A DNA stretch of 64,000 nt. It comes from Camelus dromedarius. Taxonomy: Eukaryota. Both the position numbers and the translations under genes were made by a program. Below, in pieces: positions 9,917 to 61,353 of this stretch. Location of the stretch: positions 4,960,001 through 5,024,000 of the forward strand of contig NC_087436.1 of assembly GCF_036321535.1 (NCBI RefSeq). The letters run 5' to 3'. The notes beneath the pieces were generated by a model. The model searched no databases. It saw only the letters and a list, made by a program, of their open reading frames with translations, and was not told the origin of the DNA. Positions within the stretch are counted from its first letter, which is position 1, and each line of letters begins with the position of its first letter.

Positions 9917-10786
9917 TTCCTTTTAAAAAGACTTTAGAGCAGTTTGGTTTAGTGCAAAACTGAGAGGAAGTTAGAGGGCCCATATACACCCCTGCCCTCA
10001 CACGTGCAGAATCTCTGTCATTATATACATCCCCCAGGGTGGTACCTTTGTTACAAGTGATGACCTACGTGGACACACAGTCCCCCAGAGTCCACAGTTC
10101 GCATCAGACTTCACTTTTGCTGTAGCACACGCTATAGGCTTGGATAAGCACATAATGAATGATACGTATCCATAATTATAGTATCAAAAAGAATAATTTC
10201 ATTGGCCTAAACATTTGTACTCCACCCATTTAGCCCCTGCTCTGCCCTCAACCCCTGGCAACCACTAATCTTTTTACTGTCTCCATAATTTTGCCTTTTA
10301 CAGAATGTCATCCAGTTGGAATTATACAGTTTGTAGCCTTTTAAATATTGGCTTCTTTCACTTGGTAATACGTATTTAAGTTTCATCTATGTTTTTAAAT
10401 GGTTTGATAGCTCATTTCTTTTTAGTGATGAATTATATGTTATTGTCTAGACGTACTACAGTTTATCCATTCACCTACTGCACGGCATCTTGGTTTCTTT
10501 CAAGTTTTGGCAGTTACGAATAAAGCTGCCATAAACACCCATGTGCAAGTTTTTGTGTGGACATATAATTTTCAACTTTTTCAGTAGACACCAAAGAGTA
10601 AATTGCTGGATCATATGGTAAGAGTGTGTTTAGTTTTATAAGAAACTGTCCAACTGTCTTCCACAGTGGCTGCACCATGTTGCATTCCCACCAGCGATGA
10701 GTGAGGGTTCTCCTTGGTCCACAACCTCACCAGCATCCAGTGTAGTCAGTGCTCTGGATTTCAGTTACTCTAGTAGGTGTGTGGTA
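9917..10786 (-). mobile_element. L1MC-type 3' fragment
   Basis: ORF2-end motifs (ccacagtggctgcaccatgttgcattcccaccagc) plus L1MC-like 3'UTR (cccctggcaaccactaatctttttactgtctccata). Confidence 0.85.
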
Positions 10787-11064
10787 ACACAAAGCATTAC
10801 TTTTTAAAAACCTCAGAGCTGTCTATTCTCAATTTCATTTGCCAGCAAGGAATTAGAATGACTGTGTCCTCACACCCTCCTAACTAGTTTCTATTTTATA
10901 TTTTCCATTTTAATTGATAAAATAACAGTCCTAATTTTACAGCTTACTACTGTGGAATTTTAAAAAGTGCACCAGACAAAATGTAACTGTATAACCACAG
11001 CCACGGTCAACATGTGAGATATTGCCAGCACCTGAGAACCTTTCTACTACTCTGTCCCATTCTC

Positions 11065-11385: not shown

Positions 11386-11508
11386 TTTTTTTTGGTTTTT
11401 TCCCCTCAAATAGTCATTTCCTTACTTTTCTTTATACTTTGATCAACTATTTATCTATAAACATTAACATTTCCTAGTCTTTTTAAATTATTATATAAAT
11501 GAAATCTT

Positions 11509-14500
11509 TTTTGTTGTTGTTGTTTTGTTGTTGTTTTTTTAACTTTTTAAATTGAGTAATAGTCATTCCACAACGTTATGTCAAATTCCAGTGTAGAGCA
11601 TAATCTTTCAGTTGTACATGAACATACATATATTCATTGTCACATTCTCTCTTTCACTATGAGCTACTGCAAGATCCTGTACACACTTCCCTGTGGTCCA
11701 CAGTACAATCCCGTTCATCCACTCTGCATTTTAAAATCCCAGTCTGTCCCCTCCCCCCCAACCCCCCCCCAGCAACCACAAGTCTGTACTCCATGTCTAT
11801 GAGTCTGCCTCTGTCTCACATTCATGTTTGTTTTGTTTTGTTTTGTTTCACTTTAGATTCCACATATGAGTGATCTCATATGGTATTTTTCTCTCTTTCT
11901 GGCTTACTTCACTTAGAGTGACATTCTCCAGCAACATCTATGTTGCTGCAAATGCCATTATGTTGTCGTTTTTGTGGCTGAATAGTATTCCACTGTATAA
12001 ATATACCACTTCTTCTTTAACCAGTCATCTGTTGATGGACATTTAGGCTGTTTCCATGTCTTGGCTATTGTAAATAGTGCTGCTATGAACACTGGGGTGC
12101 AGGTGTCATTTTGAGGTAGGGTTCCATCTGGGTATATGCCCAGGAGTGGGATTCCTGGGTCATATGGTAAATCTATTCCTAGTCTTTTGAGGAATCTCCA
12201 TACTGTTTTCCACAGTGGCTTTCCTCACTTCCATCTCCCACTCTTAATGATTTAGATGTCTTCTTTTACAATTTTGTGTTTATTCTTTTTGTAATTCATG
12301 GCAGTTATCTCCTTTCCAGTTATGAGTTTCTCATTTTTGTAGCATCCTGCTTCTTTTCTATTTAGAGTAGACCTGTCAATATTCCCTTTAGCATGGGTTT
12401 AGGGTTGCTAATCTCTTTTAGTTTTTGCTTGTCTGTGAAGTTCTTTATCTCTCCTTCTATTCTAAAGGATAGCCTTGCTGGATAGAATATCCTAGGCTGC
12501 ATCTTTTTTTTCACTCAGGACTTTGAATATATCTTGCCATTCCCTTCTGGCCTGTAGCGTTTGTGTACAGAAATCAGCTGAGAGCCTTATCAGGGTTCCT
12601 TGTAACTCACTCTATGTTTTTCTCTTGCTGCCTTTAGGATCATTTCTTTATCTTTGATTCTGGCCATCTTGATTATAATATGTCTTGGTGTGGGTCTGTT
12701 TGGGTTCTTCCTGTTTGGGACCCTCTGAGCCTCTTATACTTGGATATCTGTTTCCTTCTTTAGGTTTGGGATGTTTTCAGTCTTGATTTCTTCAAATACC
12801 TTTTCAATCCCCTTTGTTCTTTCTTCCCCTTCTGGAACCCCTATTATGCTTAGATTGGCACGCTTTATATTATCCCATAGGTCCCTTATATTGTTTTCGT
12901 TGTTTTTTATTTGTTTATCTTGCAGTTGTTCTGATTGGGTGCTTTCTGTTGTCCTGTCTTCTAGGTCACTTATTCGTTCCTCTGCATTATCTAGCCTGAT
13001 TTGCACAGCCTTTAGGTCAGATCTCATCTCAGCAAGTGAGTTTACTAATTCTACTTGTTCTTTATAGCTTCTATTTCATTTTTGACATATTTTATATCTC
13101 TAAACACTATCTCTTTTAGTTCCTTCAGTACTTTGATCACTCCTTTTTTGAAATCTTGATCTAGCAGGCCATCAACGTCTGTTTCCTTGATCGTGCTTTC
13201 AGGGGACTACTCTTGATCTTTTAACTGGGAATGGTTCCTCTGCTTCTTCATATTGCTCATATCTCTCTGGCACTGTGGCTTAAGGAGTATCAGTTATCTA
13301 GTGCTCCTGGAGACAGTGTGCACTTAGTGATTTTATTGCGAGGTCTTTGTGTCTTCGCCCTGTTTTGCGAACTCAGCTTGCTGTTTCCAGAGGCCTTCTG
13401 TCTGTGCCCTCTGTGCTGCTCCCAGTGGCTGTCAGCTAGCAGATCACGCCCCCTCCCAACACTGGGTCAGGTGCTGAGCTCTTATCTGGTGGATGGGCAG
13501 GTCACTCCCTCTCCTGATGCCACAGTCATATGCTGCCCTCTCCCAGCACCATGCTCAGGTGCTGCATTCTTGCCAGGAAGGCGGGTGGCCGCCTGCCCTC
13601 TCCTGGCACCAGTCGCTCCACTGCTCTGTGCAGCTGCCCACTCTGCCTCAGGTTGGCACTCTGAAGACAGGCTCAGGGAAGACCACGGAACAACCCTGCC
13701 CTGCTCTATGCCAAATCTCAGCTCCTTGTTTGTCTTGGCGACACGAGTTCTCTGAGGGACGAGGGCAGAAAGATCCTTCTGCCTCGGGCTGTAAACAAGT
13801 CTCAGTCCTGCCTAGGAGGTTGTGGAGCCCCCGGGTGCGGATTCAGGGCTCCACCCCATCCCTGCCCAGGCGCTGCGCACAGGATGATATGGTGGCTGTG
13901 GCTGTGCCCCAACTCTCCTCTCACAAGAAGCTCCAGTAATGGCAATGCAGGTCTGAGGAGACAAAGGCTATGACGCCCCTGCCCCTAGGGCACACCAGCC
14001 GTGTTGCTTTGCTTTTTTTTTTGCAATTTATGGGGACCGAGGTTATTCTGCTCCCCTCCTAGTCACATTGCACAGCACCCTGCAGTCCCCCAGGGCTGCC
14101 TCAGTGCAGCCACCCCTGTCTTCCACCCAGCTCGGGTGGCCAGTCCCAGCCCCCAGCTGCCAGCTCGCTTCTTGGGCTGGGTGTTTCGGGGACCCTTTGT
14201 GCCTGTTTAAGTCAGTTCTGTCAGTCAAGGGGTGCTCGGGGCAGATCTGAGCCTCAGAGGCTCCCCCTTTGTCCCACTGGCCTCTGCATTGGAGAGGGGA
14301 GACCCAGCGAACGAGCGCCAGTCCTCCTCCCTTAGGATCAGTCCCACACTGTTTTCCTTTTTCTTCTTTCTTTTTTCCTTTTCTTCTACCAATTTTTGGC
14401 ATCTTTGTCTTTCGAAGAGAGCGATGTTCTGTAGGAGTTTGGCAGGTGCTCTGGTTGGCTGAGTGGGTCCGTAGATGTGAGTTTTGGTGTATTTGTGGGA

Positions 14501-14547
14501 GAGGGTGAGCTACGAGCATCCTTCTACTCCGCCATCTTGCTTCTCTC
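11509..14547 (-). mobile_element. Young-lineage L1 with 5'UTR, ORF1, spacer and 3' end but lacking nearly all of ORF2
   Basis: 5' end gagagaagcaagatggcggag; ORF1 homology (RLDNAEERISDLEDR...IIGVPEGEE); spacer joins the ORF2 tail at 12218-12221; A-rich tail; perfect TSD ATGAAATCTT at 11499-11508 and 14548-14557. Confidence 0.95.
12362..13260 (-). pseudogene. Disrupted L1 ORF1p
   Basis: MSNMKKQRNHSQLKDQE*...MRSDLKAVQIRLDNAEERISDLEDR...RPTPRHIIIKM...YPARLSFRIEGEIKNF...GLL*; contains in-frame stops and frameshifts. Confidence 0.9.
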
Positions 14548-14689
14548 ATGAAATCTTAAAATGTGCATTGTTATGACTTTTTTCCAGCTTTATTAAGGTA
14601 TAACTGACAAAAAATTATAAGATATTTGAAGTATACATTGTAATCACATTTGATACATACATCAAAGCACTCATGTTTTTGCAGTTCAT

Positions 14690-27378: not shown

Positions 27379-29673
27379 GGAGGGGATCAAGATGGCAGAG
27401 TGGGAGGACAAGGAGCTCACCTTCTCCTAGACACAACTGAAATATGTCTATGTGTGGAGCAGTTCCCACTGAAAACCAATTGGAGATGGGCAGAAAGACT
27501 CTTTTAGAACCAAGGCTATAGAAAAGGATCCACACAGAGGCAGGTAGGGAGGGAGGGGAAACAATCAGTTTGGGACCCAACTCCCTAGCAAGGGACACAG
27601 AAGAGGAGGGAAATCACAGCCATGGGCATCCTCCCTGGAGAATGAGGGGTCCAACCACATATTATGCGCCCCAGCCCGGGGGTCCAACCCCAGGACACAA
27701 GACCCCTTAGCTGGTTTGAAAACCGGTGGGACTTCCAGGAGGGCTGTAAGAAGCCCAGACTCCGCTCTTGCAGAACAGGTACACACACTTGCTTATTCTC
27801 CAGAACAATCTGCAGAGGAAGTGGATTGAAACTGGCTGGGGCTCCGGCTGGTTTCCTGGAAAGGCCCCCGAATGTGCCCTAACCACACTGGGCATCTACT
27901 CCAGCCCCTCTTGCTCCAGGGCAACTTCCCACTAGGGTTAAGGCTGCTGTTGCCAAGGGGAATGAGCATTTGACGGGGACGGAGCTGGCTGAGACCTTGT
28001 ACTGCATCTAAACCAGACAAGGACGGCCACTGCTGGAGCTCAGAGAGCAGAAGAGCAAGGGCAGCCTGGAACTCTGACTGGTGTGCTGGGACCCAGTGCC
28101 TGCTCCAGCTCCTCTCACTCCACTCCTGCACCCCATGGGGGCAAAGGGGCCATGCTGGGAGTAGGGAGAGTGCACACTTAGATGGAATAGAACCAGCTTG
28201 GGCCCGACCCTTGTGACTTCTGCTCCAGCAACTTCCGACCAGCAAACTGTGACTCCCACTAAGCAGTGGAGAAGCCCTGGCTGAGACCTGACTCTGGCTC
28301 TAGCCCGTCCATCTCCAGCCCCACCTCCTACCAAGGTGATAGCTGCTAACACTCCTGAGGGAAAGATGTGACTCGTGCTTAGTCCAGATCCAGCTGTCCA
28401 CCAAAGCCACTGGTACACAGGCTGCATAGAGAAGCTACCACACAAGAACACTACTTCAGTACCAGGAGAGGTAGCTGTTTCTTCTAATTTCATAAAGAAA
28501 GAGGAAGTTAAACAAAACATGAAGACGGAGAAATTTCTTTCAAACAAAAGAACAAGAATAACTCCCTGTAAGAAACAGCTAAAGAAACAGACAAGTAATT
28601 TACCAGATAAAGAGTTCAAAGCATTAGTAATAGGAATGCTAAATGAACTTGGGAAAAGAATAGATGAAAACAGTGAAAATTTTAACCAGGAACTAGAAAA
28701 TATAAAAAGAACCAGTCAGAGATGAAGAATAAAGTAACTGAAAAAAAAAAAAAAAAAAAAAAAAAAAACCACACCAGAAGGAATTAACAGCAGATGAAGT
28801 CATACAGAAAAATAGAAAAATACTTAGGTGATCTGAAATACTGAATAATGGAAATCACTCAGTCAGAATAGCAAAAAGAAAAACAAATTTTAAAAAATGG
28901 AGGACAGTTTAAGGGACCACTGAGACAACATCAAGTGAACTGACATGTGTGGTACAGGGGTCTCAGAAGGAGAAGAGAGGGAGAAAAGTGTAGAAAATGA
29001 ATTTGATGAAATTATGGCTGAAAACTTCCCAAAGCTGAAGGAAGAAACAAATTTCCAGGTTCAGGAATCTCAGAGAGTCCAAAACAAGATGAACCAAAAG
29101 AGACTCACACCAAGACACATCATGTTTAAATTGGAAAATGTTTAATATAAGTAGAGAATTTTAAAGGCAGCAAGAGAAAAACAAGGAGTCACATAGAGGG
29201 AACTCCCAAAGGTCATCAGCTGATTTTTCTGCAGAAACTTTTCAGGCCTGAGGGGTGTGGCATGTTATATGTAAAGTGCTGAAAGGGAAAAACCACTTAT
29301 GACAAACCCATGACCAACATCATACTCAACAATGGAAAGCCAAAAGCTCTTCATCTACTATCAGGATAAGGATGCCCAATTTCGCCACTACTATTTAACG
29401 TAGTACTGGATGTCCTTGCCAGAGCAGACAAGAGAAAGATATAAAATGTATCCAAATTGGAATGGAAGAAGTATAATTGTCACTATTTGCAGATGACATC
29501 ATATATAGAAAACACTAAAATCAGTCCCCCCCAAATTATTAGAGCTAATAAATGAATTCAGTAAAGTTGTAGGATACAAGATTAATATACAGAAATCTGT
29601 TGCTTTTCTATACACGAATAATAAACTATCAGAAAGAGAAATCAAGAAATCAATCCCATTTAAAGTCACAACA

Positions 29674-29719
<46 letters not shown>

Positions 29720-29965
29720 ACAAATAAAATAAACTTAACCAAGGAAGTAAAAGACCTATACTCTGAAAACTATGAAACATTGATGAAGGAAACTGAAGAT
29801 GATATAAAGAAATGAAAAGATATCCAGTGTTCATGGATTGAAATGGTTAATATTGTTAAAATGTTCACAGTACCCAAAGCAATCTACAGAATTAATGTAA
29901 CCTTTATCAAAATATTCATGACAGTTTTTACAGGAACAGAACATACAGCCCTAAAATTTATATGG

Positions 29966-30022
<57 letters not shown>

Positions 30023-31250
30023 AAAACAACCCAAGAGCCAAAGAAATCTTGAGAAAAAAGAACAAAGCTGGAGGTATCACACTCCCTGACTTCAGACTAT
30101 ACTACAAAGATGCAGTAATCAAAAAAGTTTGGTGCTGGCACAAAAACAGACAAATAGATCAATGGAACAGAATAGAGAGCCCAGAAATAAACTCACACAC
30201 TTGGTCAATTAATCCAAGACAAATAAAGCACGAATATTCACTGGAGAAAAGATAATCTCTTTAATAAATGGTGCTGGGAAACCTAGACAGCTACATGTGA
30301 GTAAAATTAGAACATTTTTCACAGCACATACAATAATAAACTCAAAATGGCTTAAAGACCTAAATATGACTAGAAGCCATAAAACTCCTCAAAAAATAGG
30401 CAGATAATCTTTGACACAAATCAATATATTTTTGGGATCTGTCTCCACAGCAAAGGAAATGAAAGCAAAAATAAGCAAATGAGATCTAATTAAACTTAAA
30501 AGCTTTTGCAAATGGAAGCATTAACAAAACAAAAAGACAACCTACTGAATGGGAGAAAATATTTGCAAATGATAATGATAGATAAAAGGTCAATATCTGA
30601 AATATATAAACAGCTCATATAACTCAATAGCAACATAAACCAAACAACCTAATCAATAAAATGGGTAGAAGATCTGAATGGACATTTTTCCAAAGAAGAC
30701 ACACAGATGGCCAACAGACACACAAAAAGATGCTCAACATGACTCATCATCAGGGAAATGCCAATCAGAACCATAATGAGACACCACCTCACACCTGTCA
30801 GGATGGCTAGAGTCAGCAGACCACAAATACACAAGGGGCTATTTTTCATTTATGAAAAGATTGAAATGTTGTCATGTGCAACAACGTGGATGGACCTGGA
30901 GGCTATACACTTACTGAAATAAGTCAGACAGAGAGTCAAATATTGTATGTGGAGTCACATATATGCGGAATCTAAACAAGAAAGCAAGCAAACTGGTGAA
31001 TATAACAAAATGGAAACAGACTCACAGATATAGAGAACAAAGTCACGGTTATCAGCGGGGGAGGGAAGAGAGAGGGGCATGATAGGGGCAGGAGATAAGA
31101 GACGCAGCTACTAAGGATAAAATAAATAAGATGCAAGGATACACTGTACAAGACAGGAAACATAGCCAAGATTTTATAATAACTTTAGATGGACTATAAT
31201 CTATAAAAGTATTGAATCACTATGTTGCACACCTAAAGCTAGTAGAATCC
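27379..31250 (+). mobile_element. Older L1 with 5'UTR, partial ORF1 fused to the RT half of ORF2, and 3'UTR; two internal deletions
   Basis: 5' ggaggggatcaagatggc; ORF1 remnants (LPDKEFKALVIGMLNELGKR; ENFPKLKEETNFQVQE); jump near 29294 to YDKP..NIILN; ORF2 peptide [18 protein letters not shown]; second gap near 30829. Confidence 0.92.
29680..30018. repeat. Two (CA)n microsatellites (29680-29722, 29968-30018) inside L1 ORF2
   Basis: Directly visible. Confidence 0.95.
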
Positions 31251-38498: not shown

Positions 38499-39398
38499 CA
38501 TTTTACAATTTAAATTAATAACTTAATAATTACCATGGACCTGCATGTTGTGAATTCAAAATTCTTGCACCACAGGGCAGTCCTTACAGGGACTTAAGTC
38601 AATCAAAGTTGTTCCAACCAACTCAGCCTTGGCCACCTGATCCCACCACCAGAAAGTTTTAATTTGAGAGACCTTCAGTATCATTAAACTGTCAGAAATG
38701 GGTGGCATGGTAAAATAACTTAAATCAAGCTGGTGTATGTAGGAAAAAAATCAAAAAAATATAGTTCAATAAAGGAGAATATCCTATTAATACAAGTAAT
38801 CAGATCAGTTTCCTTATTTGTAACTAGTAACCTCGGAAGACATTTGTAAAGAAGGATTTTTTAAAGTAAGAATTTAGCATTTTTCTGCAGTGGTCTTGTT
38901 AAAGAAATCAATCTCTTTTATTAGCCTAATTATATCTACTGGAAAAAGTCTTTTTGTTCCTTAAGATCATTATTTTATTATAATCCTAAAAAGGCATTAG
39001 GAGTCTTAAAATCTTCCATGAATTTTCCACACCAATAATCACAGTTTTATTTCAATAAACACAATGGCAAATTCCGCATCATAAATTTCTTCATGGATTA
39101 GCGAATATATTAGAAAATTATTCTTCTAGTAATGTTCAAAGATTTTTATATCAGAAACACAAAGTAATGGTAACTTGCACATTAAGTGAGACGACTGCAT
39201 GTAGATATTTAAGGTTCCTGGAAACATCACCCTACAAATCATTTAACTCTTCAAAAACCACCAAGCAAGCAATGTTTAACATTTCCAGCTATAATCCTAA
39301 TTTCAGCGCCCCAGGGAAGAGAAAACTAAACAGAACTAAATTCACAAGATATCTATTGTCTGTATGGAAAAGATTTCAAATTTGGAAAATAACATTTT

Positions 39399-39973
39399 TT
39401 TAACATTTTTAATTGATTTGTAATCATTTTACAATGTTGTGTCAAAATTCCAGTGTAGAGCACAATTTTTCAGTTATACATGAACATATATATATTCATT
39501 GTCACATTTTTTTCTCTGTGAGCTACCATAAGATCTTGTGTATATTTCCCTGTGCTATACAGTATAATCTTGTTTAACTATTCTACAATTTTAAAATCCC
39601 GTCTATCCCTTCCCACCTTCCACCCCCTTGGCAACTACAAGCCTACTTCAGGATGACACTTGCACCGCAGTGTTCATAGCAGCACTATATAGCCAAGACA
39701 TGGAAACAGCCTAAATGCCCATCAACAGGTGACTGGATAAAGAAGAGGTGGTATATTTATACAATGGAATACTATTCAGCCATAAAAACCGACAACATAA
39801 CGCCATTTGCAGCAACATGGATGCTCCTGGAGAATGTCATTCTAAGTGAAGTAAGCCAGAAAGAGAAAGAAAAATACCATATGAGATCGCTCATATGTGG
39901 AATCTAAAAAACAAAAACAAAAACAAAGCATAAATACAAAACAGAAATAGACTCATAGACATAGAATACAAAC
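39399..39973 (-). mobile_element. Young L1 with 5' inversion (twin priming)
   Basis: 39399-39641 is the antisense 3' end and 39642-39976 is the sense upstream segment; TSD ttggaaaataacatttt / ttggagaataacatttt followed by aa. Confidence 0.92.
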
Positions 39974-40239
39974 TTGGAGAATAACATTTTAATTAACCCT
40001 GTGACTTTGAGTAAGATGGCTACCGCGCCAAACTTAAGCTTTCTCAACAATAAAAATAAGGAAGGCGTCTATGCTTTGAATATTTCCCACCAGTGATCCT
40101 GGTGCCCAAAATGTGTGAGCCACTAGAATAGAATCAGAAATAGCAGCTCAGAGATACTGCACTGGTCTAAACGAAAAGTCAAGAGCCTGAAATAAGACAA
40201 CTGGCAGTAGGACCCCCCAAAAAGGAGATGGACTTGACA

Positions 40240-53477: not shown

Positions 53478-53881
53478 TATTGAGGTAAAATTGGTATATA
53501 ACATTATGTTAGTTTCAGGCATACAGTGTAAATTCATATCTGTGTAACCACAAAGTGATCCCCACAACAAGTGTAGTCGCCATCCGTCACCATAACACAA
53601 CGGACCCCTTCATCTATTCCTCCTCCCCCCAACCTCCCTCTCCTCTGGTCACCACCAGTCTGTTCTCTGCATCTCTGAGTTTTGTTTGGACAACAGTATG
53701 GTGGTTGGTCCAAAACTAAAAAATAGAACTACCACTTGATTCAGTAATTCCCAATTCTGGATATTTACCAAAATAATTGAAATTAGCATCTTGAAAAGAT
53801 ATTTGTACTCCCATGTTCATTGCAGCATTACTCACAATAGCCAAGTGTCCAATGATGGATGAGTGTATAAAGAAAATGTGT

Positions 53882-60279: not shown

Positions 60280-60789
60280 TTTCCTTTTTTTTTGTCTTTC
60301 TCTGTCTGATTTATTTCACTTAGCATAATATCCTCTAGGTCCCTGCATGTTGTTACAAATGACAAATTTTCATTCTTTTTTATGGTTGAGTAATATTCCA
60401 TTGTGTATGTACATATATACCACATCTTCTTTCTTTATCTATCTATAGACACTTAGGTTGTGTCCTTATCTTGACTGCTGCAAATAATACTGCAGTGAAA
60501 AGCACTCCTTGAGTACATAAATCTTTTTGAATTGGTGTTTTTGTTTTCTTCAGAAAAACACCCTGGAGTGGAATTACTAGATTGTGTAGTAGTTCTATTT
60601 TTAATTTTTTGAGGAACTTCCATACTGTTCTCCATAGTGGCTGCACCAATTTACATTCCTACCAACTGTCTACAAGGGTTCCCTTTTCTCCACTTATTTG
60701 TTGGCTTTTTATAATAGCATCCTAACAGGTGTGAGGTGATAACCTAATTGTGATTTTGATTTGCATTTCCCTGATGATTAGTGATGTTG
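60280..60789 (-). mobile_element. L1 ORF2-end fragment, truncated at both ends, with TSD
   Basis: Peptide [22 protein letters not shown] aaagcttaaacatttc / aaggcttaaaactttc. Confidence 0.88.
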
Positions 60790-61353
60790 AAGGCTTAAAA
60801 CTTTCAATCACCACCCCAAGGAAAGCAAAGGAGTTTTCCTGGCATTATGAGGCCTATTTAAATGGTTCATGCATATGTTTACATAAATATCCCCACATCC
60901 TCCTCTAAATTATTGTTCTACCAGTTTAGACCTTCACAGAAAGTGTGTAGGAGTCCCAATTTCCCCCCCATTCTTGATAACTTGGAGCACTGTCAATATT
61001 TTTTAACTTTGCACATAAAACTTCGTTTCAGCAGTCTCATTGGGTCGACATTTCTTCAACTGTGAAAACAATTTGACATGATTTCACATTTATTGGCTGT
61101 TTCTATGATGTGTCTAATCATGTCTTTCACCCAGGACTCCTGCAGTGTCGGTCTTTTCTTGGAAGGTTTCTCAAGGCTCTTGTCTTGAGCTCTTTGCAAT
61201 TCATCTCCCTGTTTGCTTAGTGAGAACAAAGTCAGGACCACCATTTACCCTGAAATTGTACTCTGTCTTACAGCTTCTGCTCCCTTAAAATTTGCAATTT
61301 CCTTGTCACTTTACCTGGTTCACGGCCACTTAAGAACCTTTAACATCTCTCTG

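Follow-up and report, generated by a model that had tools for sequence, protein, structure and literature searches.

The window analysed here, 64,000 nucleotides of the Camelus dromedarius genome (contig NC_087436.1, positions 4,960,001 to 5,024,000 of the forward strand), contains on its minus strand a camelid L1 of 3,039 nt, running from 14547 to 11509 in the window letters, which has both ends and a full-length ORF1 and from which most of ORF2 is missing. We favour, with moderate confidence, the interpretation that it is a copy of a non-autonomous, ORF1-only half-L1 (HAL1)-type deletion derivative that was copied in trans.

Anatomy of the element

The two copies of the target-site duplication (TSD), at 14548..14557 (5' end) and 11499..11508 (3' end), are exact 10-nt repeats and constitute the longest exact repeat between the element ends. 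With position pairs drawn at random, an abutting 10-mer match arose in 2 of 20,000 trials; a loose one was seen in 13 of 2,000 random boxes. On the plus strand, the nick site reads 5'-TCTT/AA-3' (14554-14559), which we take to be a variant of the L1-endonuclease-type site. The duplication, the A-rich tail and the nick site show that the element was inserted by target-primed reverse transcription.

The 5'UTR (13261..14547, 1,287 nt) has 56% GC and a CpG observed/expected ratio of 0.30, and carries CAAGATGGCGG 8 nt inside the 5' end, at the same placement as in the consensus starts of pig L1B1 and L1A7. These results bear out an earlier note on this DNA, which described a TSD-flanked L1 of about 3.04 kb with both ends present, an intact 5' end followed by a 5'UTR of about 1.3 kb, and an endonuclease-type insertion site. 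ORF1 (12362..13260, 899 nt) is full length but dead, with two stops and three frameshifts relative to P0002. It is 77-88% identical to P0001-P0003, and three of its four pieces match L1 ORF1 Pfam domains; no Pfam domain was matched by the ORF2 tail or by two frames of the 5'UTR. The inter-ORF spacer follows at 12219..12361, with a donor-like GAA|GTGAGG still present at 12228, and at the junction (12218..12220, overlap of 1-2 nt, A or AG) it is joined to ORF2 at codon ~1152. The decayed remainder of ORF2 (11856..12218, 363 nt, the last ~121 codons) has a frameshift near 11970 and a stop further on, and is followed by the 3'UTR and A-rich tail (11509..11855).

Among named matches, the ORF2 tail is closest to L1 ORF2 models of Camelus dromedarius (80-89% identity), which identifies the element as a camelid L1. 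Since the ORF2 piece aligns only from residue 1151/1152 of the 1275 residues of human ORF2p, the endonuclease and reverse transcriptase are gone, in agreement with the earlier description of ORF2 as mostly missing, and the pair of intact ORF1 and ORF2 that defines an autonomous L1 is absent from the 3,039 nt. The missing part comprises ORF2 codons 1-1151 (~3.45 kb) and the remainder of the spacer. The same description gave both ORF1 and the spacer as whole; this is correct for the decayed ORF1, but of the spacer only the first 143 nt are present. Pig L1 spacers are mostly 390-529 nt long in the available part of PMC6501411 and run past the matching point, which places the cut within the spacer; with these lengths as a guide, the total loss is ~3.7-3.9 kb. 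The anatomy, the duplication, the nick site, the loss of ORF2 and the decay are all read directly from the letters of the window.

Other L1 sequences are present in the window. An older, near-full-length copy of ~3.8 kb lies on the plus strand at 27380-31210, with an ORF1 that is 54% identical to P0002. The end of this ORF1 jumps to mid-ORF2 near 29296, and a second gap is found near 30830; the copy also contains an A28 stretch and, at two places, (AC)n expansions, and has no convincing TSD (the best candidate is an 8-mer). At 39395-39976, a copy that belongs to the camelid L1 family of the element (79-87% identical) and is truncated at its 5' end consists of two pieces in opposite orientation that meet near 39640, a pattern that we take to be twin priming. 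Older L1 3'-end fragments occur at 10460-10790, 53684-53880 and 60299-60800, and two of these served as proxies for native ORF2.

A probable second locus with the same junction

The search with the ORF2-tail protein found a dromedary gene model, KAB1270384.1 (P0131), in which the 5'UTR of the element recurs: residues 427-663 align to it with an E value of 1e-39, after which the protein continues NSKLRKPLWKTVW. Following the 5'UTR part, the model reads R-K-PLWK, where native camel ORF2 has LVQ-PLWK. If the window GT after 13373 is spliced to the AG before 12223, the P0131 peptide is obtained exactly. With the window junction, no changes are needed to produce this peptide, and three are needed with each of the two older native proxies, the cost being the lowest among the 13 exon ends tried. 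The 7-nt pattern that the peptide requires is found at 1 of 1,042 positions in ORF1 and spacer. Among 407 fetched proteins, 189 motif matches have as the residue preceding PLW a Q in 180 cases, K in five, H in two and E in two. Of the five K cases, three retain the native V before the K (a Q-to-K change with V kept is thus seen in 3 of 189), one has unrelated upstream sequence, and the last is P0131. A direct 5'UTR-to-ORF2 deletion combined with one point change would yield the same peptide. From the predicted protein sequence, we consider it probable that the KAB1270384.1 locus carries the same junction as the window element.

P0131 was considered as the ortholog of the window locus and rejected. 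Outside the L1 segments, the protein finds nothing similar in the window, the best E value being 0.94. Over 59 residues, the window copy differs from the majority of camel-type rows at four positions and P0131 at eight, and the single variant that they have in common is also carried by other copies. The majority was taken from 18 camel-type rows out of 21 chosen; of the three dropped, one lacked the motif, another was empty and the third contained an insertion. The 5'UTRs of the window element and P0131 differ by indels, a point against the HAL1-type reading. In the 5'UTR, short direct repeats 60-88 nt apart are found at window positions 13467-13611, a region that is ~33 nt shorter than in P0131.

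P0131 is the only one of the 407 proteins with a 5'UTR match. No further 5'UTR-bearing protein model was found among 3,625 candidates (proteins of 30-516 aa), and all 150 matches listed in a profile search of representatives fall at profile positions 619-761, that is, in ORF2 tails. As to several insertions, there is accordingly one further candidate locus, probably a second insertion and known from the predicted protein P0131.

This second candidate bears on two alternative explanations. An assembly collapse across a full-length L1 is very improbable, because the two sides of the junction have only 1-2 nt in common, too little for collapse, and because a separately made dromedary annotation agrees with this junction. 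A one-off internal deletion during or after insertion, guided by 1-2 nt of microhomology, is a more serious candidate, although we regard it as fairly unlikely. In that case the second copy would be an old segmental duplicate or a conversion, or the P0131 match a coincidence, and the two loci could indeed stem from an old segmental duplication. An AG overlap is cheap, as AG makes up 11-12% of the dinucleotides of the element, and a single other candidate locus came up among the 407 proteins and the 3,625 candidates. The older L1 at 27380-31210, with its two internal gaps, adds to this side, since its jump from ORF1 to mid-ORF2 indicates that internal deletions are not rare; we count this jump, and the dead ORF1 of the window copy, against the HAL1-type reading. 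A one-off event is at odds with the zero-cost fit of P0131 and the scarcity of the required 7-nt pattern, and the flanks of P0131 are absent from the window. Nor is homeology upstream of the junction out of the ordinary: a GTGGGA similarity found there was rejected as not significant, because 74-173 of ~2,300 positions score equally at 25-30 nt. The deletion after insertion that the earlier note had offered as its alternative is the less likely course.

Deletion or splicing at the junction

The same note had also proposed that the RNA was either spliced or already deleted, and then mobilised in trans. The zero-change fit of P0131 favours an RNA already deleted and mobilised in trans, and the splicing branch of the proposal fares less well. 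In a splice in the manner of the human SpIREs, spliced L1 integrants, full-length L1 RNA would use a spacer donor and, as acceptor, the CAG that precedes ORF2 codon 1152, and the product would then be retrotransposed, possibly several times independently. We consider such a spliced integrant rather unlikely, and are equally doubtful that camelid L1 RNA is recurrently spliced at this junction, with ORF2 removed and the promoter and ORF1 spared.

Several features do resemble a splice. The left side of the junction ends in AAG, like the end of an exon, and the claim that native ORF2 ends in AG before the junction is confirmed by a CAG at this place in two older window copies and many pig consensuses; camel ORF2 models have a Q codon directly before the junction position. 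Recurrent splicing would also account for identical junctions in copies with differing 5'UTRs. SpIREs make up ~2% of full-length L1PA1-6 copies in human, according to the available part of PMC5860796, where they are termed dead ends.

On the donor side, the evidence is unfavourable for splicing. The donor-like GTGAG located 10 nt upstream of the cut was retained in the element rather than used. Motif matching in the set of ~53 pig L1 consensuses given as supplement 1 of PMC6501411 yielded 26 matches, 17 of them copies of the spacer. Each of these 17 carries GTAAG at the corresponding site, and in no case does GT follow the tenth base, the position equivalent to the cut; as pig is an outgroup, the camel sequence could be different. 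A segment removed by splicing would begin with GT and end with AG: the AG end is present in the two older window copies, and for the GT start the pig spacers, standing in for camel, give 0 of 17. The acceptor side is purine-rich, with 6 pyrimidines in the 18 nt upstream in both older proxy copies, and pig L1A has CAA at the acceptor position. Furthermore, the known SpIREs described in the accessible sections of PMC5860796 all splice from a donor in the 5'UTR and leave ORF2 in place. The kept donor-like motif, the lack of GT in the 17 pig spacers and the purine-rich acceptor make it likelier that the junction arose by deletion across an overlap of 1-2 nt than by splicing. Six pig spacers read GTAAGGAAAT where camel reads GTGAGGAAAG, which suggests that the last G of the junction may derive from the ORF2 side, leaving a single-A overlap.

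For the HAL1-type derivative that we prefer, the following course of events can be envisaged. An L1 in a camelid ancestor would have lost ~3.7-3.9 kb, namely the remainder of the spacer and ORF2 codons 1-1151, at the 1-2 nt overlap, either by deletion in DNA or by a jump of the reverse transcriptase. The loss would thus have preceded insertion, and the source element would have had an intact ORF1. The derivative would have retained the promoter, ORF1, the 3'UTR and polyadenylation, and could have been transcribed; intact L1s would then have supplied the ORF2p that inserted its RNA at two or more sites. After its insertion, the window copy would have decayed.

Relation to known half-L1 elements and implications

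HAL1 elements encode ORF1p only, have a poly(A) tail and TSDs, and originated on several occasions among mammals (PMC5753468, PMC5322556, PMC2241872, PMC5786205, PMC13756887, all in their available parts); the families include human HAL1 and rat RNHAL1 (PMC5753468, PMC5322556) and pig HAL1_SSc (PMC6501411). Like these, the window element has an L1 5'UTR and a full-length ORF1, lacks a functional ORF2 with its endonuclease and reverse transcriptase, and ends in a poly(A) tail between TSDs. HAL1s depend on L1 ORF2p, and by analogy the same dependence can be assumed for the window element. It differs in its camelid lineage and in having its own junction, and it keeps ~121 ORF2 codons and the L1 3'UTR. 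There are two candidate loci in camel, versus about 2,100 HAL1 copies in human and 7,500 in rat, as far as the sources consulted give them. With SpIREs the element has in common both L1 ends, a TSD and one clean internal junction ending at AG, and SpIREs can recur at identical coordinates (PMC5860796, available part). In SpIREs, sequence of the promoter or of ORF1 is lost and ORF2 remains, whereas the window element represents the opposite situation, with promoter and ORF1 kept and ORF2 lost.

The window element is ~3.7-3.9 kb shorter than camelid L1, the camelid families being compared by name only. One of their Repbase names is L1-1_Vpa. Another, L1-2_Vpa, appears in PMC6726744, as far as that source is available. 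In the literature searched, with Repbase and Dfam outside its scope, no camelid half-L1 was found, including in the available parts of PMC8605555, PMC6726744 and PMC5203782; the supplements of PMC8605555 may hold relevant consensuses. The element would work in the manner of a HAL1 type, its membership resting on one predicted second copy. The source study for the HAL1 families is reportedly that of Bao and Jurka from 2010, which we know through the papers citing it and which may list a camelid half-L1 family.

Two further observations concern L1 sequences in other records. In Camelus bactrianus, the RefSeq model P0129 (XP_074234302.1), annotated as GTF2F2 isoform X1, runs after ~100 residues into the last ~280 residues of L1 ORF2, possibly by L1 exonisation or mis-annotation. 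No camelid L1 DNA was found in viral contigs or phages; metagenome contigs gave one locus only, a bacterial false match, and plasmids one chance match of 61 nt. There was none in genome contigs either, where the sole locus is an L1 piece of 1,046 nt with 45% identity, an ORF1 fragment that fills positions 1-1046 of a 1,046-nt contig in a Pelagibacterium lacus assembly and is probably mammalian contamination.

If the junction should prove unique to this locus, the element would be an ordinary broken L1. If it were instead a recurrent splice, its integrants could be transcribed and mobilised again, unlike human SpIREs, and splicing would then lead directly to half-L1 families being born repeatedly in camelids. 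The element is young, as judged from 4 of 59 residues differing from the majority, and its junction is sharp, so that the birth of a half-L1 by deletion or splice can be read from it; it is also suited to testing whether ORF1 stayed under selection. The probable second copy with the same junction suggests a small family that took its enzyme from intact elements, a kind already described for other mammals. If confirmed, a missing family would be added to camelid repeat libraries, and, should copy counts bear this out, camelids would join the mammals whose L1 spawned an ORF1-only parasite.
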